Below are positions 3,207 through 49,944 of a stretch of 64,000 nucleotides of DNA, piece by piece. The translations under genes were made by a program, and so were the position numbers. This DNA comes from Myxococcota bacterium. GTDB taxonomy: Bacteria > Myxococcota_A > Polyangia > Nannocystales > Nannocystaceae. How positions within the stretch are numbered: position 1 is the stretch's first letter; every line of letters starts with the position of its first letter. Under the pieces are notes generated by a model. It saw only the letters and a program-made list of their open reading frames with translations. It was not told the origin of the DNA and ran no database searches. The stretch covers positions 320,001 through 384,000 of the forward strand of contig JBCCHT010000001.1 in NCBI GenBank assembly GCA_039028615.1, written 5' to 3'.

Positions 3207-4349
3207 GTGTCGTCCCGGGGCAAGCCCGCCCCCTCCTGCAGTCGACGGCAGCACGTGTCCGGTCATCGCAAACGCATCACCGGCGCCTTCATCATCCAAG
3301 GCGACAACATCGTGCCGGTCGCGCAGGAGCGACGACCTCGCAGCCGCTTCACGCTTCAGGATCTCCATGAGATCCGCCTGTTGCTTCGCGGCGACTCCCT
3401 CATCGACTGGCACCGCCTCGCCCTGAGTAGCGAGGAGGACGTCAAGCGACTCCTCCGAGTCAACGGCTTCGATCCCAACGACGCCGAGGACATGGTGCGG
3501 CTTGAGAAGCTCCGCGCCGAGGCCGTCCGCTACATCCGCGAGTCCCTCGGGCTTCGCGTCGACCCCGTGGTCGCCAGCGAGCTCCCGGCCATCGCCGTCC
3601 CCGCCCTCGCCTCGGGCCGCAGCAAGCATCAGCGCCATGCCTGCGTGCTGCTCAAGGTGATGCACATCATCTACCACCTCGATGCGCGGGAGCTCCGAAC
3701 CATCCTGCCCATCGCCGACGACGTGTTGTTCTCCGCCGTCGAGCAGAGCGTGGTGGAGCTGTTCGATCAGCTGCGCGAGAGCGGCGTGCCCGTGGTCGAG
3801 TTCGCCTGGTCGCGCAAGGTCAAGAACTCGCTCATCACCAAGCTGCTGGTCAAGCGCGAGTCGAACGCGGCGCGGGTCTTCGATCGCCTGCGCTTCCGCT
3901 TGGTCGTGGAGCGCGAGGCCGACCTGCTGCCCACGCTCAACCTGATGCTGCGGCGGTTCATCCCGTTCAACTACGTGGTGCCGGGTCAGACCGACAACAC
4001 CCTCATCGACTTGGCGCAGATCGAGCGCCGGGTCGCCCGCTCGCGCGACGTCACCATGGACCGGGTCGACGAGCGCGGCCCCGTCAACGAGTTCTCCGGC
4101 CAGAGCTACCGGGTCCTCAACTTCATCGCCGACCTCCCCGTCCGTGTCGACCGCCTGTTGGCCGACACCAAGGACGCCCACCTCGCCCCGCCGGGCAGCG
4201 TGGTGTTCGTGCTCGCCGAGTTCCAGGTCGTCGACCGCAAGCGCGCCGAGACCAACGAAGAGGGCGAGAGCTCGCACTCGCAGTACAAAAAGCGGCAGTA
4301 CCAGCGCGTCCGCGAGCGACTGCTCCGCGCGCCCAAAGACACCGGCTGA
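3207..4349 (+). CDS. TIGR04552-like conserved myxobacterial protein (start may be later)
   Basis: Motifs SLIDWHRL, SLITKLL, FDRLRFR, PFNYVVPGQ, NEFSG.SYRVLNF, EFQVVD and NEEGESSH..YK.RQ, recognised from memory. Confidence 0.75.
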   Translation: MSSRGKPAPSCSRRQHVSGHRKRITGAFIIQGDNIVPVAQERRPRSRFTLQDLHEIRLLLRGDSLIDWHRLALSSEEDVKRLLRVNGFDPNDAEDMVRLEKLRAEAVRYIRESLGLRVDPVVASELPAIAVPALASGRSKHQRHACVLLKVMHIIYHLDARELRTILPIADDVLFSAVEQSVVELFDQLRESGVPVVEFAWSRKVKNSLITKLLVKRESNAARVFDRLRFRLVVEREADLLPTLNLMLRRFIPFNYVVPGQTDNTLIDLAQIERRVARSRDVTMDRVDERGPVNEFSGQSYRVLNFIADLPVRVDRLLADTKDAHLAPPGSVVFVLAEFQVVDRKRAETNEEGESSHSQYKKRQYQRVRERLLRAPKDTG

Positions 4350-7449: not shown

Positions 7450-8133
7450 ATGACCACGCCCGGAAGCGACTCTCCCACCCTCGATTTTTACTGGGGCAGC
7501 GGCAGCCCCTACGCCTGGCGCGCCATGCTCGCACTCGAGCTCAAGGGCCTGACCTACGGGTCCCACCTGCTCGAATTCTCCAAGAAGGAGCACCGCAGCG
7601 AGAAAATGCTGGCCCTCAACCCGCGGGGCAAGGTGCCCGTGCTCGTGCACGGGGAGACGGTCATGTACGAGTCGGTGGCCATCATGGCGTACCTGGACCG
7701 GGCCTTCTCCGAGCCACCGCTGTTCGGCACGACGGCGGCCGAGACGGGCCTGGTGTGGCGGCTGGTGTCGGAGCACGACGGCTACCTGGCGCCGCTGGGG
7801 CTGCGGCTGGCGCGGCCGATCTTCATGGGCAAGGTGGAGGAGAACCGCGAGGACATCGATGCGGCGATCGAGGAACTCAACAAGGAGCTGGGACAACTGA
7901 ACACCCGGCTGGTCTCATCGCCGTGGCTGGCGGGGGAGCGGGTTTCGGCGGCCGATGTGTTCTTTTGGGTGTCGCTGCAGCAGGTGATCCGGGCGGCGGG
8001 GAAGCCGAGCGCGAAGGACCTGAACCTCGGGGTCGATCCTCTGTCCGAGCGGTATCCCGAGCTGGCCGAGTGGAGCGAGCGTTTCGGTGCGCTGCCGGGT
8101 GTCGATCGCACTTGGCCTCCGCACTGGACTTGA
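7450..8133 (+). CDS. Glutathione S-transferase family protein
   Basis: SGSPYAWR, LNPRGKVPVL, YESVAIMAYL and WLAGERVSAAD. Confidence 0.93.
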   Translation: MTTPGSDSPTLDFYWGSGSPYAWRAMLALELKGLTYGSHLLEFSKKEHRSEKMLALNPRGKVPVLVHGETVMYESVAIMAYLDRAFSEPPLFGTTAAETGLVWRLVSEHDGYLAPLGLRLARPIFMGKVEENREDIDAAIEELNKELGQLNTRLVSSPWLAGERVSAADVFFWVSLQQVIRAAGKPSAKDLNLGVDPLSERYPELAEWSERFGALPGVDRTWPPHWT

Positions 8134-27516: not shown

Positions 27517-28539
27517 TCACTCGGACTCGACCGCCGCGATCACGTCGGCCACATAGCGAGGGTCGGTGCCCGCCGCAAAGTAGAGCACGCCGTCGAAACC
27601 CGACCGCCGCGAAGGACACGGGCGCTGAGGTCGACACCCCGGGTGCGGGTCACCACCGCTCGGAGGGTCGGGACGCTCGGGGCCCTCCGCACACGGCGGC
27701 GGCTCGGGAGGTGGGCACGGCTCGTCTGGATGCTCGGGTCGCTCCGGTCGGCACGGAGGGGGGCTCGGGCAGCACTCTGACTCGTCGTCCGACGATGAGC
27801 CCTCGGGGATCGGGTACCGGCCCGCGATGATTTCGCCGTCCGCCGCGTGAATGTCCAAGCCGCCGATGATGGGGCGACCGTCGCGGGTGATGCGACCGGG
27901 CACCTGATGACTCATGAGCGAGAGGTGACTCCGCCCCGAGCTGCCCAGCAGCGACCCCCGCTCCAGCGGCGTCAGCACCTGCTCGATCACCGTCTCCTGC
28001 GACCAACCATAGAGCCGACCGAAGTACTCGATCGCGCGCTGCCGATCGATGCACGCCACCTGAGCCTGGGGCAGGCGCTCGTGCTCCAAGCCCAGGCAGT
28101 GGCCGGTCATGTGGCGAACCACGCGAATGAGCTCGTAGTCGCTGGTGTGCTCGGTGAAGCCGCTCAGGTTCATCGTGGCTTCGCTCGTCGATGTGAACAG
28201 AATTTCGGTACCGATATAGGACCAGTGGCCCTCTCGACCCGATCGCGTAATGCGAATGTCACCGATGCCGCGGGTCTCGCAAAACCGCACATGGCCCCAG
28301 TCCGACCACGCGTTCATGTGCTCGAGGATTCGGTGCCGCAGCAGGCGACTCGGGTTGTCGAGAAACTCGACGCAAAAGCACATGCCCTCGAGCGGCCAAC
28401 AATGGGGCAGGCTCGGGTGCGCCCCAGGACATTGACCGTCTTTCGGCCTTTCATGCCCTTTCGAACGACCGCCCGGTCGCGCGTCGGCGGGCAAGCGCTT
28501 GGGCACGCAGGGTATGAACTCTCGCGATCGGCTACTCAT
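27517..28539 (-). CDS. M12/astacin-like metallopeptidase homologue lacking the catalytic Glu
   Basis: HMNAW, GHWSYIGT, TMNL and VVRHMTGHCLGLEHE (HExxHxxGxxH with E->M); SLMS Met-turn; Pro/Cys-rich tail. Confidence 0.8.
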   Translation of the reverse strand: MSSRSREFIPCVPKRLPADARPGGRSKGHERPKDGQCPGAHPSLPHCWPLEGMCFCVEFLDNPSRLLRHRILEHMNAWSDWGHVRFCETRGIGDIRITRSGREGHWSYIGTEILFTSTSEATMNLSGFTEHTSDYELIRVVRHMTGHCLGLEHERLPQAQVACIDRQRAIEYFGRLYGWSQETVIEQVLTPLERGSLLGSSGRSHLSLMSHQVPGRITRDGRPIIGGLDIHAADGEIIAGRYPIPEGSSSDDESECCPSPPPCRPERPEHPDEPCPPPEPPPCAEGPERPDPPSGGDPHPGCRPQRPCPSRRSGFDGVLYFAAGTDPRYVADVIAAVESE

Positions 28540-28642: not shown

Positions 28643-29680
28643 ATGAGCACCACCATGATCCAAGGCATAGACGTCAGCGATGCCCAAGGCACCATCGACT
28701 ACTCCGCGCTCAGCGGAGCAGGGTTTCGCTTCTGCATCGTCAAGGCGACCGAGGGTGCGGACTACCAGAGCAGCCGTTGGGTCTCCAATATGGAGGCGAT
28801 AGCTCAGCTCGACGCGGGTACCAATTTCTTCGCCGGGGCCTATCACTTTGGCCGCCCCGACAACCGCAGCGGGCAATCGGGCGGTGAGACCGAGGGCAAG
28901 TGGTTCAGCCAGGTCCTCAAACAAACCGCCGCGAGCGTGGGCTTTTCGCTCACCGAGAATTTCATCGAGCCCGTGCTCGACATGGAGAAGTACAACGAAG
29001 ACGGCGCGGAGCTGAACAACGCCTGGATTCAGGGGTTTCTCAACGTGCTCCAACAGGAGACGGGCCGCAAGGGCATGATTTATACGGGCCCCAGCTACTG
29101 GCGCTATCAACAGGGCAACACCGAGCAGTTCGCCCAAGCCGGTATCCCGCTATGGGAGGTCTCCTACAGCAGCCATGGCGCCGATCCCTCCGCCACCCCA
29201 CCTCGTTTGCCCACCGATACATCCAAATCAGTGTGGGACGCTACTTTATGGCAATGGAGCGGAGGCGGGGATTTCAATCACTATGGGACCGTCCCCGGGG
29301 TCCCCAGTGGGGTGGCGGATGTGGACCGGGTCATGGGTGACGAGTCCACGCTCATGACGCTCGCTGCGGCCGGCGGCTCCAGCTCGACCGGAAGTCAAAC
29401 TGGGGGTTCCACGCCACAGTGGAACACTCTGCCCGAAAACGACCTGCGCGATTTGAGAGGCCAGCACAGCAGCTTCACCGCCCGCGTACAGGGCCTGCTC
29501 CTTTCACAAGATTACGGACCCCATGGGCTCGTTGCCTCGAGTACCGGTCGACCCGATGGCATCAGTGGAGACAGTACCGAATCGGCACTGAGCTCGTTCA
29601 AGGGCAAGGTCGGTCTACCCGCCAACACCATGGTGGACCAAGAGACATGGTGGCAGCTCGTTCAGCATGGTCTCGATTGA
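28643..29680 (+). CDS. GH25 lysozyme with C-terminal peptidoglycan-binding-like domain
   Basis: GIDVS, IVKATEG, GAYHF, PVLDME, IYTG, LWQWS and ADVD; then VQGLL...DGISG..T..AL..F; no evident signal peptide. Confidence 0.92.
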   Translation: MSTTMIQGIDVSDAQGTIDYSALSGAGFRFCIVKATEGADYQSSRWVSNMEAIAQLDAGTNFFAGAYHFGRPDNRSGQSGGETEGKWFSQVLKQTAASVGFSLTENFIEPVLDMEKYNEDGAELNNAWIQGFLNVLQQETGRKGMIYTGPSYWRYQQGNTEQFAQAGIPLWEVSYSSHGADPSATPPRLPTDTSKSVWDATLWQWSGGGDFNHYGTVPGVPSGVADVDRVMGDESTLMTLAAAGGSSSTGSQTGGSTPQWNTLPENDLRDLRGQHSSFTARVQGLLLSQDYGPHGLVASSTGRPDGISGDSTESALSSFKGKVGLPANTMVDQETWWQLVQHGLD

Positions 29681-30017
29681 AAGGCGATGTAATCGGGCCC
29701 GAAAGACGTAGAAGGGCCGAGCAAAGACGCGCACAACCATCGTCGTGAAAGAACGCGAAGCAAGGGTCCTGGCGCGAGGCTGAAACGCAGGGCCCTTGCA
29801 GCGCGAAGGAGGATGCACGCCCGCGGCGAAGCGGTACGTCGAGGGCTACGAGGTTTTGTGATCCGTGCGGGCACGAGGGTCACTCCCTCGAAGGTGAACC
29901 ACCCGTTTGCACGAGCTCGACTCGCCGAAGTCATCGCGACGATGGCGAGTCGCGGAATCGGTCATCGACACTCGATGACGTCGCTCGCTGCACGCCAATC
30001 ACCCGTCGGATCGTGGT

Positions 30018-30041
30018 TCACATTCCTATCCGTCGGGCGTC
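30018..30041 (+). promoter_or_regulatory. ECF-type promoter motif TCACA-N15-CGTC upstream of the ECF sigma gene
   Basis: TCACA ttcctatccgtcggg CGTC ag. Confidence 0.75.
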
Positions 30042-30159
30042 AGCACATGTACTCTCAACGCCCGAGACGAGGAAGCCGACGTGTTGGTCGGGTCCCGTCT
30101 CGCGCTGGGTTCGCTCGCCCTCGGGCGTATTGAGTGGTCGCCGACCGGGTGCATGTTCA

Positions 30160-30792
30160 ATGATCACTGATGTCGCAACTCCTGCCTGGGCCGAGGCACC
30201 GACCCAACGCGAACAAGCGCGTCGCAAACGGGCCCTACGTAGGGAAAGGCGACGGAATTCGCGGAAAGAGACGGTCGAGCCCTCCGACCGTTGGCGTGCC
30301 TGGATCGACAATCGAGACATGCTCTACCGCCGCTGTCTCGGCTGGACCAACGGCAATATCACCGAGACCGAAGACCTGCTCGGACAACTGCTCATGCGAC
30401 TCCTTCGCGTCGAGCCTTCCGAGTTTGAACAGGTCAAGTCACCGCGCGCCTGGATGACTCGCATCCTCCGGCACCTGTATGTCGACTTGGTCCGCGGCAA
30501 CTCACGTGCCCACGCCCATGACCTCGAAGTCGAACGCATGCTCCACGGTGGTGGCGGCGGCGACCCGGCCAACGAGGTCTGGCGCGGAGAGCTTTCCGAA
30601 GCGCTCCAATGTGCCATCGACGAACTTCCCTCCTCGCTGCGCGAGCCTCTCATTCAGCGTCATATCGACGGGCTCGGCTACCAACAAATCGCGAGCTGTC
30701 ACAAAATTACCGTTCCCACGGCTCGCAAGCGCTGCCAGCTGGCTCGTGACCGCATTCGGCAGTCGCTCAAGAACACTCTGTCACCGACCTGA
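30160..30792 (+). CDS. ECF sigma-70 factor (candidate activator of the reb region)
   Basis: LYRRCLGWTNGNITETEDLL, PRAWMTRILRHLYVD, AIDELPSSLRE and YQQIA...TARKR. Confidence 0.88.
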   Translation: MITDVATPAWAEAPTQREQARRKRALRRERRRNSRKETVEPSDRWRAWIDNRDMLYRRCLGWTNGNITETEDLLGQLLMRLLRVEPSEFEQVKSPRAWMTRILRHLYVDLVRGNSRAHAHDLEVERMLHGGGGGDPANEVWRGELSEALQCAIDELPSSLREPLIQRHIDGLGYQQIASCHKITVPTARKRCQLARDRIRQSLKNTLSPT

Positions 30793-30798
30793 GGGCAC

Positions 30799-31989
30799 AT
30801 GAGCAACATCCGCGTAACGCTGGCCATTCACTGGGAAGGTCGTCACCTCGACGGCGTCAAGCACTTCGCACAAGACCGCAAGCGCCTGATCCCGGGAATC
30901 CCCGTCACTCACTTCGTCTCGGCCGCCTACTTTGCCCGCGGCGGTGACATCGAGGAAATCGTCAAAGCCATGCTCCCGGCGTTCGAGAGCAATGACGAAA
31001 TCGCGCTGCACGTGCCCGCCTGGCAGAGCATTCGCGGGGCGAGGCACGAGCCGAGCCGCTCGGTCATCGTCGGTGACGACCCCGAGCTGGTCGTCGAGTA
31101 CCCCGGCATCACGGCGCAGCCCGACCGCGGCTACACCTACCCGATTTCGGCGTACGAGAAGCCGTCGATCGAGTCCTTCATCGTCACCTCCAAGCTGCTG
31201 CTGCGGCCCCTGCTGCAGGCGGTGGTGCTGCGGCGCGGGCTGAACATCGAACGAGTACTGCGAGGCATCCGAGCCGGCCACGGCATGGCCTCCGACGTGT
31301 TCTTGGTCGCCGCCTGCAACTCCGGCTTCAAGTACGACGCGTCGGGGATGGACGCGGTGTGGGCCCGCGACTCGGCCGACCGCGCCGAAGCGGAGGCCAA
31401 GCGAGGCGAGCAACTCTTCGCTCCGCTATGGCGCCATTGGGCCGACCTTTGGGGCTCGACCGAACAGAACGAGCCGCACCTCAGCAACCACGGCATGCGA
31501 GCAGGCACGGGGGGCGCGGGCATCAACGCCAGCACGCAGCCCTTCTTCATCGCTCGCGCCGGCGGCTCGCAGCTGCTCGAGCTGCCGGTCAATGGCGGGG
31601 TCGTGCCCCCGGCGAGCCCGCAGCACGTCGCCGAGCTGCTCACCAATGCGCTCGAGTCTCCCCCGGGAGTCCCGCGGATCGTGAGCATCGCCCTGCGCCA
31701 GGAGACGGCCGAGCACAGCCTCGACGCACTGATGGCGGTCGAGGCCCTGCACTCCCAGCGCATCCGGTGGACCACCAACGTCGACCTGCTCGAGGCGTTG
31801 CTCGGCAAGCCGGCCATCGCCGAGCCCGAGCCCCAGCGCCCCTTCCAAGTCATCCGCGAGCAGATGGCCAAGCACCTCCCCATCAACGTTCCGCTCGCGC
31901 AGCACGGCGCACCTCCGCAGGCGCCGGCCGGGCCCGTCGCCCCGCCCGTCGTGATTCCGAGCATTCAGGTTCCGCAGATCAAGACCTGA
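30799..31989 (+). CDS. Polysaccharide deacetylase (NodB/CE4)-like protein, metal motifs degenerate
   Basis: VTLAIHWEG, PVTHFVS, EIALHVPAW, IRAG, GFKYDAS and LLELPVN. Confidence 0.55.
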   Translation: MSNIRVTLAIHWEGRHLDGVKHFAQDRKRLIPGIPVTHFVSAAYFARGGDIEEIVKAMLPAFESNDEIALHVPAWQSIRGARHEPSRSVIVGDDPELVVEYPGITAQPDRGYTYPISAYEKPSIESFIVTSKLLLRPLLQAVVLRRGLNIERVLRGIRAGHGMASDVFLVAACNSGFKYDASGMDAVWARDSADRAEAEAKRGEQLFAPLWRHWADLWGSTEQNEPHLSNHGMRAGTGGAGINASTQPFFIARAGGSQLLELPVNGGVVPPASPQHVAELLTNALESPPGVPRIVSIALRQETAEHSLDALMAVEALHSQRIRWTTNVDLLEALLGKPAIAEPEPQRPFQVIREQMAKHLPINVPLAQHGAPPQAPAGPVAPPVVIPSIQVPQIKT

Positions 31990-32066: not shown

Positions 32067-33734
32067 ATGTCGATGGCGGATGACGAGAGCACGGGGCACC
32101 GACTCGACCACGACTCCCTGCGGAGCGAGCTCGAGCAGGAAGTCGTGGCGATGAGCCTGTACCTCACCGGGGGCGGAGAGTCGCTGCCTCCCGAGGTCCT
32201 GCCCATCCTGCGAGCGCTGGACGACGGTGCGAAGGTCGTGCCCTTCTCGCACCTCGCCCCCGCCCACTCGGCCCTGGCCAACCTCGCTGCGCCCGCTTCT
32301 CCTCGCGCCCTCGTCGTCCTCAATCGCCACGGGGCCTTCGAGGGTCGACGCACCTACCGGCTGCTGCCGCTGTCGCGGGCCATGATGGCGGTGGCCGTCA
32401 TCTCGATGCTCGGCCTGGTGTTGGTCGGCACCTCTCCGCTCGTCGGGCCCGATCCGACCCTCGCCAACCCCACGCTGTCCTCGGGGCTGCCGCTGCTGGT
32501 CAATCAAGTCTTCTTCATGTTCGCGTCGGCGCTCGGCGCCGCCTTCCACGGCCTGTTCAGCCTCAACCGACACATCACCGAGGCCACCTACGACCCTCGC
32601 TACGACTCCAGCTACTGGACCCGGCTCGTCCTCGGCATCATCGCGGGCACCATCTTGTGTCTGGTGGTCAAGGTCCCCCCCGACAGCTCGCTGTACGGCG
32701 TCGGGCGTCACATCATCGCGCTCCTCGGCGGGTTCTCGGCCGGCCTCGTCCATCGCGTCCTCAATCGTCTCGTCTCCACCGTCGAAGGGTTGTTCGAGTC
32801 CGATCCAAAGAGCGCCCGACGAAAGAGCGAGGCCGTGGCCGGCATCGCGCAGCGAAACGCCCGCGACGAGCAACGGATCCAAGCCGCGTCGACGTTGCTG
32901 GACCTCCAGTCGAAGATCAGCGACGGAACGAGCGCCTCCGAGTTACGGGCTGAGCTGGGCAGAGCCGCCAATGCTCTCCGAGCGGGGTTCCCCTCTCCGC
33001 GCCCCCACCATGACGAGGGGAGCTCCGCGGACTCGCGCTCGGGTGAGCCCGACGAAACAGAGCCGAGCGCCTCACCCTCGGCACCGACGGATGACTCGAG
33101 CGCCGAGAGTGCCGACGCGCCCGTTGCCCCCGCTCCCGCCGCGGCCTCCCCAGCGGCACCCGTCGAGCCCGATCCGCCGGCCGCTCCCGCTTCGACCGCA
33201 CAGACTCACGCTCCCGCACCAGCCGCCCCTGCCCCTGCTGCACCCGTCTCTCCGCCTGCTCCCACGGCGCCCGTCGTCGCTCCCGCTCCCGCTCCTGCGG
33301 CCCCTGCTCCCGCTCCTGCGGCCCCTGCTCCCGCTCCTGCGGCCCCTCCCGTCGCTGCGCACGTTCCTGCGCCTGCGCCTGCTCCTGCTCCACCTCCCGT
33401 CGCTGCCCCCGTTCCTGCGCCTGCTCCTGCTCCACCTCCCGTCGCTGCCCCCGTTCCCGCGCCTGCGCCTGCGCCTACTGCACCTCCCGTCGCTGCGCCC
33501 GTTCCTGCGCCTGCGCCTGCTGCACCTCCTGTCGCTGCCCCCGTTCCCGCGCCTGCGCCTGCGCCTGCTGCACCTCCCGTCGCTGCGCCCGTTCCTGCTC
33601 CACCTCCCGTCGCTGCGCCCGTTCCTGCTCCGGCTGCACCTGCTGTCGCCGCCCCCGTTCCCGCGCCAACCGTTCAACCTGCTCCCGCTCCCGCCCCGAC
33701 CGCGGCCCCTGCTCCCACTCCTCACCAAACCTGA
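32067..33734 (+). CDS. Membrane protein (about four TM helices) with long Pro/Ala/Val-rich tail
   Basis: SALGAAF...YDPRY..SYWTRLVLGIIAG...ALLGGFSA; (PPVAAPVPAPA)n at ~33290-33720. Confidence 0.8.
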   Translation: MSMADDESTGHRLDHDSLRSELEQEVVAMSLYLTGGGESLPPEVLPILRALDDGAKVVPFSHLAPAHSALANLAAPASPRALVVLNRHGAFEGRRTYRLLPLSRAMMAVAVISMLGLVLVGTSPLVGPDPTLANPTLSSGLPLLVNQVFFMFASALGAAFHGLFSLNRHITEATYDPRYDSSYWTRLVLGIIAGTILCLVVKVPPDSSLYGVGRHIIALLGGFSAGLVHRVLNRLVSTVEGLFESDPKSARRKSEAVAGIAQRNARDEQRIQAASTLLDLQSKISDGTSASELRAELGRAANALRAGFPSPRPHHDEGSSADSRSGEPDETEPSASPSAPTDDSSAESADAPVAPAPAAASPAAPVEPDPPAAPASTAQTHAPAPAAPAPAAPVSPPAPTAPVVAPAPAPAAPAPAPAAPAPAPAAPPVAAHVPAPAPAPAPPPVAAPVPAPAPAPPPVAAPVPAPAPAPTAPPVAAPVPAPAPAAPPVAAPVPAPAPAPAAPPVAAPVPAPPPVAAPVPAPAAPAVAAPVPAPTVQPAPAPAPTAAPAPTPHQT

Positions 33735-33847
33735 ACCGTCGAGCGGTCTCGGGGCCCGAGACGTCGCGAGGCACGGCCTCGCGTCACAGCGGAACGAGAG
33801 CCCGAGTTGACGGCCCAACACCGCCACTGCGAACGTAGTAGGTGCCC

Positions 33848-34519
33848 ATGTCGATCCGTAGACAGCTCGAGAAGACGCTCCGCCAACACCTCGGGTTCGC
33901 GGAGGTCACGTGGCCGACGTTCGGCATGCAAGTCAAAGTAGGCGACGCCGCCCGCTCTGGACGCGACGGGTTCGAGTTCTCCGGCCTCGGGAACCTGCTC
34001 CAGCGCTACGACCTCGATCCCGAGCGCTACCAGCCCATGGAGGAGGCACCGAGCATCGACATCGAGTTCAGCCATCAGGTGAGTCGAAGCTCGAGCCTCG
34101 CGGCCCAGTACCGCGCCGGCCAGACCGACGTGAAGGTCGACCTGCACTTCGAAACCGACACCGCGTTCTATCTGTTCGTGCCCAAGGCTCGCATTCGAAG
34201 CCTGCGAGACGTCGACTCGCTGGCATCCGACCTCCACCGGGCCTCTCAATCGCAGGGGAACCGAGTCCGCCTTCGTGAGCGCATCGTCTACAAGACCATC
34301 GAAGCAGAAGGACCCGGAACTCTGCTGATGTCGCAAGGCCGCAACACTCGAGCGCAGCTGGGCGCCGACCTCGGGAAGAAAGGCGGCGTGCTCCAGCTCA
34401 GCGGAGCCTCGGGCAACGTCACGCAGCTCAACGTCGAGGGGCCCTCATCGGTCTTCGCCTTCGGCGTCTTCCGACTCGCCGTCGGCCGGCGACACTACGT
34501 CCTCGACCCCGTCGACTGA
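33848..34519 (+). CDS. Gasdermin-like pore-forming protein (223 aa, tentative)
   Basis: WP...VKVGD...F..LGNL; amphipathic hairpins IDIEFSHQVSRSSSLAAQ/VKVDLHF; IVYKTIEA; C-terminal VFAFGVFRL. Order resembles bacterial/fungal gasdermins; judged by eye only. Confidence 0.55.
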   Translation: MSIRRQLEKTLRQHLGFAEVTWPTFGMQVKVGDAARSGRDGFEFSGLGNLLQRYDLDPERYQPMEEAPSIDIEFSHQVSRSSSLAAQYRAGQTDVKVDLHFETDTAFYLFVPKARIRSLRDVDSLASDLHRASQSQGNRVRLRERIVYKTIEAEGPGTLLMSQGRNTRAQLGADLGKKGGVLQLSGASGNVTQLNVEGPSSVFAFGVFRLAVGRRHYVLDPVD

Positions 34520-35845
34520 CGGGGGCCGCGGGTCGACGGTCCGCCCGGGCATCGAGCTGAACGCCACCTGGTCCGCCTCGTCGTCGATGAGATAAGCGTA
34601 GGGCGTCGCGTCGATGTCGGCATAGACCGCCCGCAACCGCTCGCTCTGCTCCACCGTCGGCATGGCTTCGATCCGCTGCCGCCCGGTGCCGAAGTCGAAC
34701 ACGTAGCGATAGCGCTGGTAGTAGGCTCGCCGGGGCGTTCGCATCTCCACCGACCGCAGGCTCTCGCGCATGCACTCGTCGGTCGCGGCATCGCCGATGG
34801 TGTCCTCGGTGACCGAGACGTCGTCGAACACCATCGCGACATCGGGTTCCCCGACCAGCGTCCCTTCGAGCACCAGGCGTCCCTCGTCGCGCCCGCCCAG
34901 CGAGACGAGGCAATCGTTGAACACCTCCAGCTCTTCGGCGATCTGTCGGTTGGTGTCGACAATGAGCTCGAGCATGGCCGCCGCATCGGGATTACTCGGT
35001 ATGGGCAGCCCATAGCGAGCGAGCATCGCCCCGGGCTCGGGCTCGGGCTCGGACGACGCGGCCTTCGACTGGACGGCACGAGCCTCGACCCCACGCGCTC
35101 CCGAGACCTTCGCGGACGGAGGAGCAGCAGCCGAAGCGTCGACAGGATGGGGTGTTCCGGCCGTAGGCGGCGGAGTGGCGGCGCCATCCTCAGGCCCCGC
35201 AGCCGTGGTCGTGGCCGCGGACGACTCGTCCGCCGAGGAGTAGGTCCAGGCGATGGTGGTCGCAACGATGGCAGCGGCAGCGAGGCCGAGCTTGGCAGAG
35301 TTCATGGTGATGCTCGCAGTCTTCAGCGGAGAGGGCAGCCACCCCAGGGGCAGCCATGCGGACAAGCGTTCGAAGAGCGGCTCGGCCTCCACACCGAGCT
35401 CGCGACGAAGCCGAGCGACCGCGCGCGACAGCCGAGTCCGAGCCGTCGAGGGTCGCAGCCCCAGCTCGGCGGCCAGCTCCGGCGCGCTGCGTTCCTCGTA
35501 GTAGCGCCCCACCACCAGTCGCCGATCGGTCGGATCGAGGGCCCTCAGGGCCGCGGCCAGGCGCTGCAGCTGCTGCTCGAGCTGGGCGCGGGCCTCTGGA
35601 GTCGACACCGAACCCGACTCGGCCACTGCCTGCTCCCGTCGTCGCCGACGCTCTCGGCTGCGCCACCGAGAGACGGCCCGGTTGCGCATCACCCCTGCGA
35701 TCCACGAGCGGGGTGCACGAGCGTCGTCACCCGCCCGCCACGCGGCAATGCGTGCCTCCTGCACCAGATCATCGACATCGAACGCCCCGGGGGCGATCTG
35801 GTGCGCCATGCGGCGCAGGTCGCTCGTAGAAACCTCGGACTGCAT
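34445..35845 (-). CDS. ECF sigma factor fused to a TM segment and extracytoplasmic domain
   Basis: DDLVQEA, SWIAGVMRN and ELAAELGLRPSTARTRLSRA, then a TM helix and a domain with two Cys. Confidence 0.85.
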   Translation of the reverse strand: MQSEVSTSDLRRMAHQIAPGAFDVDDLVQEARIAAWRAGDDARAPRSWIAGVMRNRAVSRWRSRERRRRREQAVAESGSVSTPEARAQLEQQLQRLAAALRALDPTDRRLVVGRYYEERSAPELAAELGLRPSTARTRLSRAVARLRRELGVEAEPLFERLSAWLPLGWLPSPLKTASITMNSAKLGLAAAAIVATTIAWTYSSADESSAATTTAAGPEDGAATPPPTAGTPHPVDASAAAPPSAKVSGARGVEARAVQSKAASSEPEPEPGAMLARYGLPIPSNPDAAAMLELIVDTNRQIAEELEVFNDCLVSLGGRDEGRLVLEGTLVGEPDVAMVFDDVSVTEDTIGDAATDECMRESLRSVEMRTPRRAYYQRYRYVFDFGTGRQRIEAMPTVEQSERLRAVYADIDATPYAYLIDDEADQVAFSSMPGRTVDPRPPSVDGVEDVVSPADGESEDAEGEDR

Positions 35846-35971
35846 CTGCGGCTTCGTCACCTCCTGGTCGTCACCACCGAGCCGAGTGTCCCACGCCATC
35901 GAAAAAAAGATCGACAAGCGCCACCCCGGAAGTCCGGGATGGCGCCCATGACGCGCTCTTCGCGTCCAGGC

Positions 35972-38074: not shown

Positions 38075-38587
38075 CTACTCTTGCGGGGCTGGTGCTGGCG
38101 CGGGTGCAGGAGCCGGCGCGGGTGCAGGTGCTGGCGCGGGTGCAGGGGCTGGCGCCGGTGCAGGGGCTGGCGCGGGTGCAGGAGCTGGCGCGGGTGCAGG
38201 AGCTGGCGCGGGTGCAGGAGCCGGCGCGGGTGCAGGGGCGGGCGCGGGTGCGGGTGCGGGTGCGGGCTCCGGCTCGACCGGCGAGAGGGTCAAGATGCCC
38301 TCGACCTGGATCTTCGTGCAGCAACAGCACTGCGGATTGACGTAGAGTTCCGCCATCGCCACCCGATCGGTGGCCGTGGTGGTGGAGTAGTAGATCGCCT
38401 GCGCAAGGCTGAAGATGCCGTCTTCCACCGCCAGCGAGTCGTCTTCGTCGCTGTTGCGCGACCGCGGGTACACCACTTCGGCGGTCGTGCCATCGTCGTT
38501 GACGACGTTGAACTGGAGGCGGTTGTAGCGTCGGGCGCTCGCGATCAGGCCGGTGATCTGGATCTTCTTCGTGACCATGTCGTGCAT
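38075..38587 (-). CDS. Hypothetical protein with CCCC motif and long (Pro-Ala)n tail
   Basis: GC3-rich ORF; NPQCCCCTK; about 30 PA dipeptides. Confidence 0.8.
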   Translation of the reverse strand: MHDMVTKKIQITGLIASARRYNRLQFNVVNDDGTTAEVVYPRSRNSDEDDSLAVEDGIFSLAQAIYYSTTTATDRVAMAELYVNPQCCCCTKIQVEGILTLSPVEPEPAPAPAPAPAPAPAPAPAPAPAPAPAPAPAPAPAPAPAPAPAPAPAPAPAPAPAPAPAPAPQE

Positions 38588-38757: not shown

Positions 38758-39294
38758 TCATTCGGCGTCGGTATCGTCGGCAGCCGGTTTCGGCTGCATG
38801 CCGGGGAACTGCAGCGCGGGATAGCCGTTCAGGATGTGATCGGCCGCCCGGGTGATCATGCGGCGAGCCGGCCGATACCCGAACTCGGGATCGATCATGT
38901 CCTCAATGTACTCGTCGACCGCCGATGGTTCCGGCAACTTCGGTGCGCTCATCGTCCGCAGCGGCCCCAACGCGGTCAACAGGACCATCAGGTCCGCGCT
39001 CGACTCCAGCGAGAGCTCGGCGAGCTGTTTCTCGCGCGTTGCCACCTTCTCGAGCAGCGCGGTGAGTTCCGCCGCCAACCGCCGTAGCTCCTCGAGCTCG
39101 GCGATTTCGGCCGCGGTCACCCCCCCTGGCTCCACGGCCTCGGCGACCGTTCGGGCCGCCTCTGCGACCCGACTCCCCCCCGTCGTGCCGTCATCGGCCG
39201 TGGTGCCTTCGTCCGTGGCACTCGTATCGGCCTCGGCCGTCGAGTCGGTCGAATCCGTTTGCGGGGAACGGGATCTGTTGCGGGGTCGGGCCAC
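38758..39294 (-). CDS. Hypothetical protein with coiled coil
   Basis: GTG 8 nt downstream of the promoter motif; ELEELRRLAAELTALLEKV...IDPEFGYRPARRMITRAADHILNGYP. Confidence 0.65.
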   Translation of the reverse strand: MARPRNRSRSPQTDSTDSTAEADTSATDEGTTADDGTTGGSRVAEAARTVAEAVEPGGVTAAEIAELEELRRLAAELTALLEKVATREKQLAELSLESSADLMVLLTALGPLRTMSAPKLPEPSAVDEYIEDMIDPEFGYRPARRMITRAADHILNGYPALQFPGMQPKPAADDTDAE

Positions 39295-39302
39295 AAAACC
39301 CT

Positions 39303-39326
39303 GACGACGGTCTCCGCGGTTTGTGA
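39303..39326 (-). promoter_or_regulatory. ECF-type promoter motif TCACA-N15-CGTC
   Basis: Minus strand: TCACA aaccgcggagaccgt CGTC ag. Confidence 0.7.
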
Positions 39327-39336
39327 AGGAGTTGTG

Positions 39337-39753
39337 ATGGCTGATTTCGATTTCACCAAGATCCCCGAGATCGTCGCCGAGCGCCTGAACACCGTGGCGG
39401 CCGATTGTCAGCAGCGCGGGCAGGACATGTTCGAGAAGGCCCTCGCCGACCAGCGCACGCTGCTCGGTGAACTCGCCACCCCCGCACAACCGCTCATGAC
39501 CGCCACCGGGACGTTCGTGACCCGGTTGGCGAATCCGCCACCCAAGCCCAAGCCCAAGCCCGGTCAGGGCGGTGACGAACCCGGGCCCGAGCCTGCGCCA
39601 GCGCCCGCGCCCGCCCCAGCTCCCGCGCCAGCTCCCGCGCCCGAACCCGAGCCGGCACCTGCGCCCGCCCCAGCGCCCGAACCCGAGCCGGCACCTGCGC
39701 CCGCGCCCGCCCCAGCTCCCGAACCTGCGCCCGCGCCCGCGCCCGAAGGCTGA
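39337..39753 (+). CDS. Hypothetical protein with (PA/PE)n tail
   Basis: ATG after AAGGAG; MADFDFTKIPEIVAERL... Confidence 0.8.
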   Translation: MADFDFTKIPEIVAERLNTVAADCQQRGQDMFEKALADQRTLLGELATPAQPLMTATGTFVTRLANPPPKPKPKPGQGGDEPGPEPAPAPAPAPAPAPAPAPEPEPAPAPAPAPEPEPAPAPAPAPAPEPAPAPAPEG

Positions 39754-45552: not shown

Positions 45553-45767
45553 CGCGATGTTCCAGTCGATGCGCAAACGGGAAGACCCGGGGGCCATCGA
45601 TGCGCAGGTCGACGAACCGGGTGGAAGCCGAGCAACGTGACTTCCACTCGGTTAGTGGGCAGGGCGCGGAAACAATTTGATCTCGGGATGACTTTCGTCG
45701 GGCGCGGCCGAGGCTCGATGTGTCATCCTCGGCCAGCGAGTTCACGACCCGCGCCGCGCCCCCAACG

Positions 45768-46523
45768 ATGACCAAGCGAACGCAGCCACGAAGCTGGGTG
45801 GAGCTTCCCCCCAAGACCATCGAGCGCGCACTCGATGGCGATCGAGCCGCATTCGAGGAGGTCTACACGCACTACTCGGGCATCGTCCGGGGTGCGGTCG
45901 CGTCCCGGATTCGCCGCTGGCCATCACTCTCGTCTCAGATGGAAGACATCCTGAGCGACATCTGGGTGCAGCTGCTCGCCGACGACCGCAAGGTCCTGCG
46001 CTACTACGATCCCGACCGCGGACCCTTCGGCTACTTCATCCGGCTCGTCGCGGCTACCAAGGTCTCCACCGTCTTGCGTCGGCAGGCTCGTCGAAGCGGA
46101 GCCGCAGCCACGATCGTCGATCTTCCCGTGGAATACGACGAAGAGATCGAGCGAGTGCTGATGCAGCGCGACTTCATCGAAGCGCTATGGGCCGAGGCCC
46201 AAACCACGCTCAAGGACGTCGACCAACAGCTGCTCACCCAAGTGCTCGTGCTCGGGCGGGAGACCAAGGAAGTCGCGGCCGAGCTCGGGCTCAAGCGAGA
46301 CGCCGCGTACCAGCGCATCAACCGACTTCGGCGTCGCCTCACGCAGATCGCTGAGCGGCTGCTGGCCGACGGCAGTGGCACCCGACGCTCGAGCCCCGAC
46401 TTCGCGGCGGCCGTGCTGATGCAGGCGCTCGTGGTCCTACCCACCCTCACCCTCGGCGCCCCTGGATCCACTGTCGGACGTTGTTTTAATCCCGACGTCA
46501 GCTCCGTGTCCCCGAAGGGCTAA
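45768..46523 (+). CDS. ECF sigma-70 factor
   Basis: GDRAAFEEVY, EDILSDIW, YDPDRGPFGYFIR and EVAAELGL...YQRINRLR. Confidence 0.88.
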   Translation: MTKRTQPRSWVELPPKTIERALDGDRAAFEEVYTHYSGIVRGAVASRIRRWPSLSSQMEDILSDIWVQLLADDRKVLRYYDPDRGPFGYFIRLVAATKVSTVLRRQARRSGAAATIVDLPVEYDEEIERVLMQRDFIEALWAEAQTTLKDVDQQLLTQVLVLGRETKEVAAELGLKRDAAYQRINRLRRRLTQIAERLLADGSGTRRSSPDFAAAVLMQALVVLPTLTLGAPGSTVGRCFNPDVSSVSPKG

Positions 46524-46532
46524 ATACGATCG

Positions 46533-47282
46533 ATGGTGCCCACCGACATTCTCGACGTCCTGGCCGCTCGCCAGACCTTGGCCACGACGCCGCGCGCGTG
46601 GTTCGATGCGGCCGAAGGGGAGATATCGATCGAGCGCGCCAGGGAGCTGGTGGCCGACCGGGAAGACCCTGCGCTCATCGAGCGCTCCGCGGCCCTGTTT
46701 CGCCCGGGAGACCCTCGGATCGAGCAACGACGGCTGCGCATGCTCGTGGGCGAGCACTTCCCCGTCCGTCGTCGTTCGTGGCGACAGCCGCTGCTCATCG
46801 GCGTGAGCCTGGCCGCCGCGCTGCTGTTGGTGCTGAACCTCGGCGATCCAGCCTCACGGGGCCCCGGCTCCGTCGCGTTGGCGCAGTACTCCATCGAGCT
46901 CGAACGCAGCGCCAAGACCCTGCGCGGGGACGAGCCCCCGTCCGTCGCGGTCTTTTTCGCCGACCGTCGGCTCCGAGCCACGCTGCGCCCGTGGACCGCA
47001 ATCACGACCCCCGTCGAAGCGGCGGCGTACGTCTGCGAGGCCGACGGCAGCCTGCGCCCCCTTCCCCTCCAGCCGCGAGCCTCCCACGACGGGGTGATCG
47101 TGGTCGACGACGCGATCGCCGATCTCGGCCTCGGGCTCGGGCTGGTCGATCTGGTGTTCGTCGTCGGCCCTCGCGGCGAGCTCCCCGTCCCCGAAGACTG
47201 CCGCGGCGACGCCCTGTTGCCCTCCCAAGACCATGCTCGAACGATTCGCACCCGCATCGAGATCCAGCCGCCGCCGGGCTAG
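46533..47282 (+). CDS. Single-TM protein, probable anti-sigma factor
   Basis: Lies between the sigma and CHAT genes; TM segment IGVSLAAALLLVL followed by ...TLRG. Confidence 0.6.
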   Translation: MVPTDILDVLAARQTLATTPRAWFDAAEGEISIERARELVADREDPALIERSAALFRPGDPRIEQRRLRMLVGEHFPVRRRSWRQPLLIGVSLAAALLLVLNLGDPASRGPGSVALAQYSIELERSAKTLRGDEPPSVAVFFADRRLRATLRPWTAITTPVEAAAYVCEADGSLRPLPLQPRASHDGVIVVDDAIADLGLGLGLVDLVFVVGPRGELPVPEDCRGDALLPSQDHARTIRTRIEIQPPPG

Positions 47283-49944
47283 CGCTGCGCTGGTCTGCGC
47301 GCTCGTAGCGAGCTGCAGCGGGGCCGAGAGCCCCGAGGCGGGGCCGCGCGCGGTCGACTCGCTCGAAGTCGACTATGGGCACTGCCTGGCCGTTCGCCAC
47401 GCCGAGGTTCCCACCTGCGTGCTCGAGAGCGACTCGCTGCGCCTGTGGCTGCGTCACCCCGATGCGGAGCATGCCACCGTCTACGTCGATGGCGTCGACA
47501 TCGAGCCCTCTCAGTTTCGTCACGAAGAACTCGTGGGTCTGGGCCTTCGGCTCACCCTCCCGGAGTCCGCTCGACACCTCAAGGTCGAAATCGACACCGC
47601 CAGCGGTGCACCCACGGCGTGGGAGCTCGAGCTGTCGCACGACGACCCGAACCCGTTGTTCGCCTCCGTCCGCACCGCCATCGACAAAGACCTCCAAAAG
47701 GGCGACACCGCGGCGGCCATCGCTCGACTCGACGACGTTCGCATCGCCTACCCCAACACCACCGAGACGCTCGATGTCGCGTTCGCGGCCGTGTTCTGGC
47801 TGGCCCGCGACGTCAATGCTCTCCCCCTGGCCGAGACCCTCCTCGACGACTACGCCCCGCTCGCCCGAAAGTCGCCCCAGGGGCGCGCGGAGCTGGCCAT
47901 CAATCGCGGCCTGCTGCACTGGTATCGCGGACGCCTCGACCAGGCCGCCATGGCCTACCGCGAGGCGGCTCAATACGCGCTCCGCTCCGAGGACTCGTAC
48001 CGCCAGATGGCCACGATTCCGATGTACGCCGACATGCTGGCGGAGCTCGGCTATCTCGGCGCAGCGATGCACTGGGTTCGACACACCGAGCGTCGGCTCG
48101 ACAAAGGCTCCAATTCGCCGGAGGTCATCGGGTCCGTGTCCCGCACCTTGGGCTGGATCGGCCTGCTCCTGAACGCCGCCGGTCGCGACGAGTCCGATCC
48201 CGGGCCCCACCTGTACGAAGCACTCGAGATCTTCGGTCCACGGGGCGCGGCACCCCGGCCCAAGAAAGTCGGCGGCGTGCGACTGGGGCTCGCCCGGCTC
48301 GCGCTCGATCGAGCTCGGCCTGGCGAAGCGCTCGCGCAGCTGGAGCAGATCGACCCCAAGAAGATCACGCCCGACGAGTACTCCCACGCCGTCGAGCTCG
48401 AGATTCGGGCGCGGCTCGAAGGCGGCGAGAGCACGCCCGAAATCGAGGCGCTCATCGAAGAATACGAAGACATCGCCTCTCGCTCGCATACCCCTCAGGT
48501 CGCGTGGACGGCCGCCGTCATCCGGGGGCGCCTCGCGGAAGTGGAAGGTCGGGTCGACGACGCGATCGAGCACTATCGCGACGCCGAAGCGCTGCGGGAC
48601 GAGGTCCTCACCCTCACTGTGTTCGGGGCGGGACGAAGCAATGCCGGCGCGCTCGATCCAGAAGCCACGGAGCGCTTGGTCACCCTGCTGCTCGATCGGG
48701 GCCGAGCCGAGGAAGCCCTGTGCACCGCCCGACTCGCCCAGGCGCGCACGGTGCAGACCCTCGTCATGCCCAGCTCGCTCAGCCGAGGCGAGCGGCGCGA
48801 CATCGAGGAGCAGACCCTCGCCTATATCGGGTTGGGCCAGCAGATCCACGACCTGGAGCGCTCCGGCCGTGAGCGCTCCGGCGAGCGGCTCGAGCGAGTG
48901 CGGCGAGAAGCGACCCAGCTGCGCCGAGAGCTCCAGCGCCAGGCCACCGCGCTCACGCTCGCGCGCGCCCAGCTCTCCGGTGGCCTCGAGTGCAGCGACC
49001 TGACGCCGCGGCAGCCGGGCGAGCTCATCGTGGCTCTTTATCCGCAGGGCCCCGACTGGGTGATGTTCGTGCTCGACGACGGCGCGCTGACGGTCCACCC
49101 GCTGGCCACCTCCGGGCGACTGTCGTCGCTGCCCACCGAACAACAGGCTGCGCTGCTCGTCGATCCCATCGCCGACCGTCTGCGAGCCGCCTCCCGGGTC
49201 CGCGTGCTCGCCACGGGCGATGCCAACCACGTCGACGTGCATGCGCTAGGGCTCGACGGCCAGCCCCTGGTCGCTCGCCTCCCCGTGCACTACGCAGCCG
49301 AGCTGCCCTCGAGCACGGCGTCCTCCGCTGTGTCCTCCGATCGACGACACGCGCTGCTGCTGGCCGATCCCACGCGCTCGCTGTGGGCGGCATCGAGCGA
49401 GGTTCGCACCGCGGGCGGGCTGCTGAGCGAAGCGGGGTGGTCGACCTCGCAGCCGAGCGACCCGGGCTCGCTCCTGCAGGTCATCGAAGAGCTCGAGACG
49501 GCCGACCTGTTCCACCACGCCGGACATGCGGACGCCGCCACCCCGACGAACGTGGCGAGCCTGTGGCCTCCCTACCAAGGAGGTGCGCCCGGCTGGCCCT
49601 CGTATCTGCAGCTCGAGCCCCCCGTACAGCTCGCGGTGCACGAGATCCTGCTGCTGTCCCACGCACCCCGCCACGTGGTGCTCAACGCGTGCCGTAGCGG
49701 GGTCGTCGACGTGCAGCACGCGGGCACGAGCCTCGCATTGGCGTTCCTGGCCGCGGGCAGCGAACAGGTCTTGGCCTCGCCCGAAGCCACCGAAGACCTG
49801 CTCGACGCCGAGCTCGGGCAGCGGCTGTACGAAGGCCTGACTCCCGGCGAGCCCCTCGACCTCGCCGTCCAGCTGCACCGGCTCATGGCACGACGCGTCG
49901 CGGCGGGCGACAGTGTGGGGCGACTACGGGTCTGGAGCCGTTGA
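47233..49944 (+). CDS. TPR-CHAT (caspase-like) domain lipoprotein
   Basis: Lipobox VASC, helical repeats, LFHHAGHA and VVLNACRSG dyad, LALAFLAAG. Confidence 0.88.
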   Translation: MLERFAPASRSSRRRASAALVCALVASCSGAESPEAGPRAVDSLEVDYGHCLAVRHAEVPTCVLESDSLRLWLRHPDAEHATVYVDGVDIEPSQFRHEELVGLGLRLTLPESARHLKVEIDTASGAPTAWELELSHDDPNPLFASVRTAIDKDLQKGDTAAAIARLDDVRIAYPNTTETLDVAFAAVFWLARDVNALPLAETLLDDYAPLARKSPQGRAELAINRGLLHWYRGRLDQAAMAYREAAQYALRSEDSYRQMATIPMYADMLAELGYLGAAMHWVRHTERRLDKGSNSPEVIGSVSRTLGWIGLLLNAAGRDESDPGPHLYEALEIFGPRGAAPRPKKVGGVRLGLARLALDRARPGEALAQLEQIDPKKITPDEYSHAVELEIRARLEGGESTPEIEALIEEYEDIASRSHTPQVAWTAAVIRGRLAEVEGRVDDAIEHYRDAEALRDEVLTLTVFGAGRSNAGALDPEATERLVTLLLDRGRAEEALCTARLAQARTVQTLVMPSSLSRGERRDIEEQTLAYIGLGQQIHDLERSGRERSGERLERVRREATQLRRELQRQATALTLARAQLSGGLECSDLTPRQPGELIVALYPQGPDWVMFVLDDGALTVHPLATSGRLSSLPTEQQAALLVDPIADRLRAASRVRVLATGDANHVDVHALGLDGQPLVARLPVHYAAELPSSTASSAVSSDRRHALLLADPTRSLWAASSEVRTAGGLLSEAGWSTSQPSDPGSLLQVIEELETADLFHHAGHADAATPTNVASLWPPYQGGAPGWPSYLQLEPPVQLAVHEILLLSHAPRHVVLNACRSGVVDVQHAGTSLALAFLAAGSEQVLASPEATEDLLDAELGQRLYEGLTPGEPLDLAVQLHRLMARRVAAGDSVGRLRVWSR

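Follow-up and report, generated by a model that had tools for sequence, protein, structure and literature searches.

How is a gasdermin kept from perforating the cell that makes it when it ends almost directly after its pore-forming domain and has no protease gene beside it? To our knowledge, a C-terminal peptide silences every bacterial gasdermin (bGSDM) that has been characterised, until a protease encoded next to it sets the protein free. The gene gasA lies in a 64,000-nucleotide stretch of the genome of a marine Myxococcota bacterium (contig JBCCHT010000001.1, positions 320,001 to 384,000; the whole stretch is referred to below as the window), and an initial annotation had described its product, P0001, as a short gasdermin-like protein with almost no inhibitory tail. 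By structure prediction, comparative alignment and analysis of gene neighbourhoods, we sought to place this protein among the gasdermins and to weigh how it might be controlled. We tentatively favour, at somewhat below an even chance, a reading in which P0001 is a pre-cleaved gasdermin that is limited by its synthesis from an operon headed by an extracytoplasmic function (ECF) sigma factor and that permeabilises its own cell.

gasA is an open reading frame (ORF) whose stop-free translation gives a protein of 223 amino acids. The gene and the parts of it that matter here are as follows.

33848..34519, plus strand: gasA, encoding the tail-less gasdermin-like protein P0001 (ORF, AlphaFold 2 (AF2) model, Foldseek and VIA-align)
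34448..34480, plus strand: last core β-strand of the predicted gasdermin domain, residues 201–211 (SVFAFGVFRLAV region; DSSP strand 201–210, matching the last strand of the relatives)
34481..34516, plus strand: residual tail codons, residues 212–223 (GRRHYVLDPVD), near-invariant in the clade and ending where the acidic tail of the relatives begins

The ATG at 33848 is kept in both aligned related loci, where it opens a conserved MSIRR; an alternative GTG start at 33842 would add two residues. A word-indexed search of 5.8 billion proteins returned seven homologues besides P0001, at 51–74% identity, and an orthologue occurs in conserved synteny in a metagenome-assembled genome (MAG) of the Nannocystaceae, so the ORF is more than a chance reading frame. 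An exhaustive single-protein search gave three representatives, with E up to 0.001, among 1.84 billion proteins, and a profile search gave five further proteins of 254–269 residues. Related loci were found twice in genome contigs and once in metagenomes, there on a 1.1-kb contig without context; a scan of viral contigs for relatives of gasA found none. In its own genome (12.27 Mb in 94 contigs, 96.7% complete) gasA is present in one copy. The motifs from which the resemblance to gasdermins had been drawn are all found in P0001 and in the order given, namely W22-P23, V29-K-V-G32-D33, G48-N49-L50, IVYKTIEA at 146–153 and VFAFGVFRL at 202–210, and residues G32 and D33 are invariant in all 18 aligned relatives. 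The N-terminal cysteine of bGSDMs is palmitoylated. P0001, said in the initial annotation to lack that residue, contains no cysteine anywhere and no hydrophobic helix, and none of 47 distinct family sequences, the short-tail clade described below included, has a cysteine within its first 12 residues.

The AF2 model of P0001 was built from an alignment of 18 sequences, to which distant relatives had been added, three of them translated from genomes of the same phylum. It has a predicted local distance difference test score (pLDDT) of 86.9 and a predicted template modelling score (pTM) of 0.83, with the last long strand at residues 201–210 and a short strand at 217–220. An earlier model, built from eight close homologues, reached a pLDDT of 58.9 and gave insignificant Foldseek matches, though gasdermin pores led them, and was replaced. 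With the final model, the Foldseek matches listed from the Protein Data Bank (PDB) are gasdermins only through rank 21 (18 matches listed, E 1.8e-6 to 2.3e-3), comprising mammalian proteins, the Trichoplax protein, RCD-1 and three bacterial crystal structures; perforin and cytolysin folds appear only below them. VIA-align, an aligner independent of Foldseek, placed gasdermins in the top 14 positions among 48,161 representative chains, the first non-gasdermin having a Z-score of 5.8. The best match was the Vitiosangium bGSDM oligomer 8sl0_A (Z 10.9, root-mean-square deviation (rmsd) 4.1, 165 residues aligned), and the structures of TrichoGSDM and RCD-1 gave Z 7.0–8.0. In the ESM Atlas, the structural neighbours of P0001 include gasdermin-C, with a template modelling (TM) score of 0.54, and a Bact_GSDM cluster, with a TM score of 0.59, and its feature neighbours are clusters in which 11–12% of members carry Bact_GSDM (PF26164).

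Sequence links point the same way at lower significance. Against 177,635 PDB sequences, the family profile found 7n50_A (Gasdermin) as its best match, at E 0.04 and collinear from 31–198 to 33–209, with the GD motif common to both, and the relative P0018 matches the PADLOC bGSDM model PDLC02986 at E 3.9e-4 over residues 13–196, nearly its whole length. A single-sequence search of the PDB with P0001 itself found no match, nor did a scan against Pfam, in a set that did not include Bact_GSDM PF26164. Two independent aligners, the ESM Atlas and weak collinear sequence links thus back the resemblance to gasdermin pore domains proposed in the initial annotation, and the comparison with bacterial gasdermins and RCD-1 that it named as a check, run with AF2, Foldseek and VIA-align, returned a fold match, a bGSDM being the best match in VIA-align. 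P0001 very probably has the gasdermin fold. On its predicted structure, gasA is a highly divergent bacterial gasdermin, descended from bGSDMs and predicted to work like them.

The model also indicates which form of a gasdermin P0001 resembles. Its residues 1–221 span residues 4–233 of the protomer in the active Vitiosangium pore, with the Z of 10.9 and rmsd of 4.1 given above, and the inactive full-length Vitiosangium protein (7n51) aligns with Z 8.8 and rmsd 5.9. By these alignments the length of P0001 is close to that of the released fragment, and its model leans to the active shape; judged from the model, the whole gasA protein corresponds to the fragment that is normally set free by proteolysis. 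A prediction with three copies gave an ipSAE of 0.49, compared with 0.00 for the best control, with contact agreement of at least 67% from run to run and a partner pLDDT of at least 75. Among proteins of solved structure, 20 of 30 pairs and 1 of 23 single chains attained this mark. In the predicted interface, which is head-to-tail, residues 118–124, 148–149 and 62–71 pack against residues 43–49 and 52–53, and residues 217, 219 and 220 of the tail stub lie in this protomer–protomer interface. The prediction supports self-association of P0001, as a measure of likeness and not of binding, since gasdermin pores have already been solved and the pass may reflect the predictor's memory of these structures.

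In the profile alignment, 11 residues (GRRHYVLDPVD) follow the last core strand, against roughly 14 in the initial annotation. The near-absence of an inhibitory tail holds when set beside the acidic tails of 27–79 residues in relatives, and it marks a single derived short-tail clade. For this comparison the extracted family members were aligned to the profile, L002–L004 being omitted as duplicates of L007–L009. Among these members, an 11-residue tail occurs only in the window, in genome G413 and at loci L005 and L010, the G413 protein being the same as that of the Nannocystaceae MAG locus (L006). The other extracted members have tails of 27–79 residues that are rich in Asp and Glu and carry a Trp/Phe motif, with the exception of a long-branch member from G148 with three residues (the three-residue tail is listed as L009), L025 with a non-acidic tail of 110 residues, and a fusion in G435 with an extension of 498 residues. 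The G435 gene (L054, G435:C128, 3114–5246, minus strand) is a single ORF of about 711–715 amino acids. Its gasdermin-like domain is accompanied by an acidic linker, by PG_binding_1 (E 1.1e-9) and by some 370 residues more; its C-terminal 367 amino acids gave no Pfam or PDB sequence match.

A maximum-likelihood tree, rooted at the midpoint, was computed from 48 rows (47 distinct sequences), each truncated to 300 residues, after the identical L022, P0005 and P0007 had been dropped. The nine short-tail rows form one clade (support 100/99) nested among tail-bearing clades, and its sister, P0009, a protein of 216 amino acids, likewise ends soon after the last strand. Since tails occur on both sides of the short-tail clade, loss is the parsimonious reading, and by the tree a derived tail loss in the gasA clade is well supported. 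The nine distinct short-tail sequences are full length and without indels, and the 65 columns invariant among them take in the core strands as well as the GD motif that 7n50 also has.

The family as a whole is concentrated in one lineage. A 401-genome sample of the phylum yielded only 4 matches; within the order the profile gave 44 matches in 23 of 61 genomes (22 of 60 when the own genome is set aside), often in two or three copies, and all four further genomes of the same genus have matches. From these counts, the gasA family appears as a lineage-specific expansion in this Nannocystaceae-related myxobacterial order. The canonical models PDLC02986 and NF051890 found no bGSDM in the own genome. 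PDLC02986 found none at E 1e-5 in the 401-genome sample, where the control genomes were silent too, so this blank is uninformative.

Proteases often lie close to these relatives. Their flanking ORFs were picked crudely by GC content at third codon positions (GC3) and scanned with Pfam; most flanks were only 1.5 kb long, and eight further member loci lay outside the scan. A CHAT or Peptidase_S8 domain was found beside the gene or two genes away in 9 of the 21 tail-bearing loci scanned. Seven of these have CHAT, encoded by the next gene downstream in L007, L034, L035, L037 and L038, and two genes away in L052 and L053, where it is fused to nSTAND1-WD40 or SIR2; in L027 and L036 a Peptidase_S8 gene adjoins. 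Two loci (L051 and L048) gave weak C25-like matches only, and 10 of the 21 gave none. With an acidic tail and a nearby caspase-like (CHAT) protease or subtilase, most family members look, by their sequences, like classical bGSDM systems.

Around gasA itself, four genes on each side hold no protease family by Pfam except a weak, degenerate M10-like ORF, so that the absence of an adjacent protease, as first described, stands in the sense that none is recognisable as active. At the short-tail locus L005, five scanned ORFs had no Pfam match and thus no protease family, and the matched neighbours in L006 are orthologues of the window's own genes. The M10-like ORF (27517–28539, minus strand, 340 amino acids) lies 5.3 kb upstream of gasA and matches Peptidase_M10 weakly, at E 0.005. 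Its zinc motif reads HMTGHCLGLEH, with HMTGH in place of HExxH and the catalytic Glu replaced by Met, and the protein may be a pseudo-protease; no counterpart was matched in the L006 locus.

What might then replace proteolytic control is suggested by the genes upstream of gasA, which are listed here with the elements found among them.

30013..30792, plus strand: ECF-type sigma factor heading the run (Sigma70_r2 and Sigma70_r4_2; alignments of homologues begin at residue 40–50)
30016..30041, plus strand: ECF-promoter-like motif GTTCACA-N15-CGTC, conserved upstream of orthologous sigma genes in three genomes
30799..31989, plus strand: orf396, cytoplasmic, with a predicted fold like polysaccharide deacetylase/YdjC/DUF2334 (no Pfam match; ESM Atlas TM 0.51–0.65)
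32067..33734, plus strand: orf555, a membrane protein with 3–4 hydrophobic segments (residues 99–206), ending in some 270 residues rich in Pro and Ala (no Pfam family)
33746..33762, plus strand: stem-loop of 7 bp (GGUCUCG GGG CCGAGAC) just past the orf555 stop (alignment and folding)
28643..29680, plus strand: GH25 muramidase carrying PG_binding_1 at its C-terminus and lacking a hydrophobic signal segment at its N-terminus (Pfam E 4.7e-26; hydropathy scan)

On the plus strand, the ECF sigma gene is followed after 6 nt by orf396, after 77 nt by orf555 and after 113 nt by gasA. Gene order and gaps agree with the initial description of gasA as the last gene of a same-strand run headed by a sigma gene. 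The motif GTTCACA-N15-CGTC is the only copy between 28 and 36 kb of the window, with none in the 113-nt gap before gasA; elsewhere it occurs in the same place in L006 (4393–4418) and at about 12.9 kb in L051. It is a candidate autoregulated promoter, and its position implies that the true sigma start is probably near 30160 and not at 30013. The window matches the classical ECF pattern GGAAC-N14-19-CGTC three times, which is below chance expectation, and never close to the locus, and no sigma-70-like site was found between 28400 and 36100. The stem-loop at 33746–33762 is kept in L006 with one compensatory pair; its folding z-scores (-1.4 and -0.28) are not significant, and it could, weakly, be an attenuator or an RNA-stability element. 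A second hairpin, CCCCTCG-N3-4-GAGGGG, lies about 45–70 nt upstream of the gasA start in L005 (about 3620–3640) and L006 (about 7943–7962) and is missing there in the window. The assignment of orf396 as a deacetylase or YdjC-like protein is a lead only; the pair of sigma gene and orf396 is found in two genera. The GH25 protein, which precedes the run, has muramidase matches in the PDB down to E 2e-15.

Beyond gasA follow genes for a TPR-methyltransferase-like protein and a LuxR-type protein. Genome G413 (locus L006) keeps the order GH25, sigma, orf396, orf555, gasA, TPR-methyltransferase and LuxR, at 51–71% protein identity. Genome G416, of the same genus, has a locus with sigma, orf396, TPR-methyltransferase and LuxR, without GH25, orf555 and gasA; GH25 adjoins the run in the own genome (G000) and in G413. 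Some 3.5 kb upstream of the G416 locus there is a paralogue that bears a tail and has a weak C25-like neighbour. Since that locus lacks gasA, and since the sigma–orf396 pair and orf555 occur in another genus with no match to the family profile, gasA seems to have been added later to a sigma unit that already existed.

From the fold, the tail and this gene order, we infer pore formation, absence of autoinhibition, dependence on the sigma factor and self-lysis. Newly made P0001 would at once be able to oligomerise into pores, and the main control would bear on its synthesis from the fourth position of an ECF-sigma operon (sigma, orf396, orf555, gasA), with the conserved stem-loop before gasA perhaps damping read-through. 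Expression would permeabilise the inner membrane of the producer and so amount to regulated self-lysis. Control of gasA by transcription alone is plausible on these sequences, and it fits both the gene order and the placement of the conserved promoter-like motif, which precedes the sigma gene and is absent from the gap between orf555 and gasA.

A wider version of this proposal, which we regard as unlikely, makes the pre-cleaved gasdermin the membrane-lesion part of a chromosomal autolysis module, triggered by the ECF sigma factor, in a social or predatory marine myxobacterium. The pores would admit the signal-less GH25 muramidase to the cell wall, the gasdermin taking the role of a holin. Such a module would fit the recurrent links to peptidoglycan-active proteins: at this locus GH25 and gasA are either both present, as in two genomes, or both missing, as in G416; one relative has a VanY gene two genes away; and another relative, that of G435, is fused to a peptidoglycan-binding domain. 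If true, it would be the first cleavage-independent gasdermin pathway in bacteria. Our literature search found no case of a bacterial gasdermin activated without cleavage and no gasdermin paired with holin and endolysin. An October 2026 preprint, in the portion of its text accessible to us, likewise places cleavage-independent gasdermin activation only in animals and fungi (bioRxiv 10.64898/2026.10.05.756811).

Several points speak against a gasdermin that is born active and restrained by its synthesis. The direct sequence link to gasdermins is marginal, at the E of 0.04 given above, and P0001 itself matches neither the PADLOC model (PDLC02986) nor the NCBIfam model (NF051890 prok_gasdermin) at E up to 10. 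In the alignment with 7n51, the last aligned residue of the model, 223, stands opposite chain residue 256, which, to judge by the cleaved length, would lie inside the inhibitory peptide; in the model, the last gasA residues could thus lie where part of that peptide lies. The C-terminal peptides of bGSDMs range from a dozen to about 100 residues in the accessible part of a review (PMC12547243), so a short tail is by itself no proof of lost inhibition. The 11-residue tail is moreover near-invariant: within G-x-R-x-Y-V-[LI]-D-P, residues G213, R215, Y217, V218, D220 and P221 are invariant in eight sequences that are otherwise 51–74% identical, from which it appears that the short tail has a function. 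A CHAT-domain ORF of 903 amino acids (47233–49944, plus strand) lies 12.7 kb downstream of gasA. In another genus, 6 of 8 genomes have orf555 homologues, none of which adjoins a profile match, the sigma–orf396 pair is likewise found there without one, and the linkage of gasA to the operon may, on this distribution, be a recent one that has no functional meaning. Very tight repression would also be needed for a pore former that is constitutively active.

Some of these points bear directly on an alternative that we consider less probable than restraint by synthesis, yet still a serious contender, in which gasA is gated after translation. The tail could serve as a small latch, or as the place where a distant protease docks or cuts, or the protein could be held by a partner such as orf555 until released by, for instance, phage, envelope stress or a change in lipids. 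In favour of this stand a tail that is invariant at six positions, the placement of residue 223 opposite the presumed inhibitory peptide of 7n51, and the 24 CHAT matches in the genome, one of them 12.7 kb away. Precedents for its elements exist, as 7 of 50 bGSDMs have no adjacent protease in the accessible text of Johnson et al. (bioRxiv 2021.06.07.447441) and some bGSDM peptides have only a dozen residues (PMC12547243). As an inhibitory tail, however, the stub is 16–68 residues shorter than the tails of the acidic-tailed relatives and lacks their acidic and aromatic motif, and the trimer model puts residues 217, 219 and 220 in the protomer interface and not on the sheet face. The orf555 homologues without a profile match in 6 of 8 genomes of another genus tell against that partner. 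The CHAT gene in the window was considered as the cognate protease and set aside: its product is not significantly similar to the CHAT protein encoded next to the relative P0016 (best E 0.072), and with 24 matches in 12.27 Mb, one would fall within 13 kb by chance in about 5% of cases. Two unannotated ORFs on the same strand, among them 45720–47282 (plus strand), precede this CHAT gene.

It is improbable, in our estimate, that gasA is an outward weapon of a predatory myxobacterium, a pore former delivered by a non-classical route (vesicles or contact) together with the GH25 enzyme and the deacetylase-like protein. The GH25 protein with its peptidoglycan-binding domain and the deacetylase-like protein do share the neighbourhood, and the G435 family member is fused to PG_binding_1. 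Solitary, protease-free toxins of gasdermin fold, the pyroptolysins, have also been described in bacteria (bioRxiv 10.64898/2026.10.05.756811), but these were selected at 325–400 amino acids in the accessible part of that work, and P0001 has 223 and no extra Ig-like domain. All three proteins lack a hydrophobic signal segment at the N-terminus, and no secretion genes were seen among the Pfam-scanned neighbours. The relatives, in addition, adjoin CHAT proteases, some of them fused to a STAND NTPase or SIR2, which is the architecture of intracellular suicide systems. Still more improbable is a relic or repurposed gasdermin fold that forms no pores and has, for example, a structural or regulatory role, for which the loss of the tail would need no compensation. 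The sequence is very divergent and matched by no curated model, and the clade is rare, with its three representatives among 1.84 billion proteins in the single-protein search. Yet the nine short-tail sequences have stayed full length and free of indels with 65 invariant columns, the alternating hydrophobic and polar pattern persists in residues 63–76 and 94–101 and in the hairpin region 157–196, and the homo-oligomer prediction passes. Among these accounts we continue to prefer a pre-cleaved gasdermin limited by its synthesis.

So understood, gasA stands between several known systems. With the bGSDMs of Runella, Bradyrhizobium and Vitiosangium (PDB 7N50-7N52, 8SL0, 9A84) it shares fold and size class, and its relatives share their C-terminal tails and nearby CHAT or S8 proteases. 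Unlike them, P0001 has a stub of only 11 residues in place of a typical inhibitory peptide, no recognisable neighbouring protease and no N-terminal cysteine, escapes the PADLOC bGSDM and NCBIfam prok_gasdermin models, and sits in an ECF-sigma operon. For comparison, the accessible text of Johnson et al. marks the autoinhibitory peptide in two structures, as the final 16 residues in one and the final 30 in the other, and gives 43 of 50 bGSDMs as adjoining a protease gene (bioRxiv 2021.06.07.447441).

TrichoGSDM from Trichoplax and RCD-1 from Neurospora resemble gasA in being a single pore-forming domain without an inhibitory C-terminal domain. Both are activated without cleavage, TrichoGSDM being inactive as a disulfide-linked dimer and RCD-1 needing two incompatible alleles, according to the accessible part of the review cited above (PMC12547243). 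These proteins are eukaryotic, however, and gasA, with no cysteine and a single genomic copy, is without their control devices. The pyroptolysins offer a bacterial gasdermin fold that, as in gasA, has no partner protease; in the portion of the preprint accessible to us they are gasdermin–cholesterol-dependent cytolysin (CDC) chimeras (bioRxiv 10.64898/2026.10.05.756811). gasA, in contrast, encodes a single domain of 223 amino acids and is nested among protease-linked, bGSDM-like relatives. Its assignment as a pyroptolysin was rejected for its length, its single domain and the lack of longer relatives among those found; that no longer or fused forms of P0001 turned up is weak evidence. Phage-type holin–endolysin cassettes are alike in having a signal-less cytoplasmic muramidase near a predicted membrane-lesion protein. 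They differ in that the lesion protein here is soluble and β-rich and not a small helical membrane protein, and in that GH25 and gasA lie 4.2 kb apart, with a gap of 330–480 nt and a sigma promoter motif between them.

The short-tail clade amounts to a natural experiment, because relatives in the same genus and family keep both tail and protease and this clade has lost both and is nevertheless conserved. A comparison of the two could show whether the stub inhibits, whether transcription alone restrains an active pore former, or whether another partner has taken over. The gasA family moreover reveals a large gasdermin expansion that current models of defence systems miss; among the neighbours of gasA, scanned with Pfam only and not with PADLOC, no defence genes were recognised.

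One further gene overlaps gasA from the opposite strand.

34445..35917, minus strand: convergent 490-amino-acid ECF-sigma fusion ORF, its 3′ end overlapping that of gasA by 75 nt (Pfam and locus alignments)

In this ORF an N-terminal ECF sigma domain is followed by a long extension. The orthologous loci of G413 and G416 have no such ORF, which marks it as a recent insertion, and it might conceivably act on gasA in antisense. Because G416 lacks both orf555 and gasA, we also considered these two as a two-gene cassette, an idea weakened by the orf555 homologues in 6 of 8 genomes without a profile match. In four loci of genus g256 (L057–L060), no gasdermin-like gene was found at E up to 10, and the ORF preceding the orf555 homologues looks trypsin-like by eye (TNRHVV, DLALLRI). 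Long repeats of Pro-Ala dipeptides, or Gly-Ala on the other strand, occur within several ORFs of the neighbourhood, at 32870–33734 (plus strand), 38075–38587 (minus strand) and 39259–39753 (plus strand), the longest of them being the orf555 tail.

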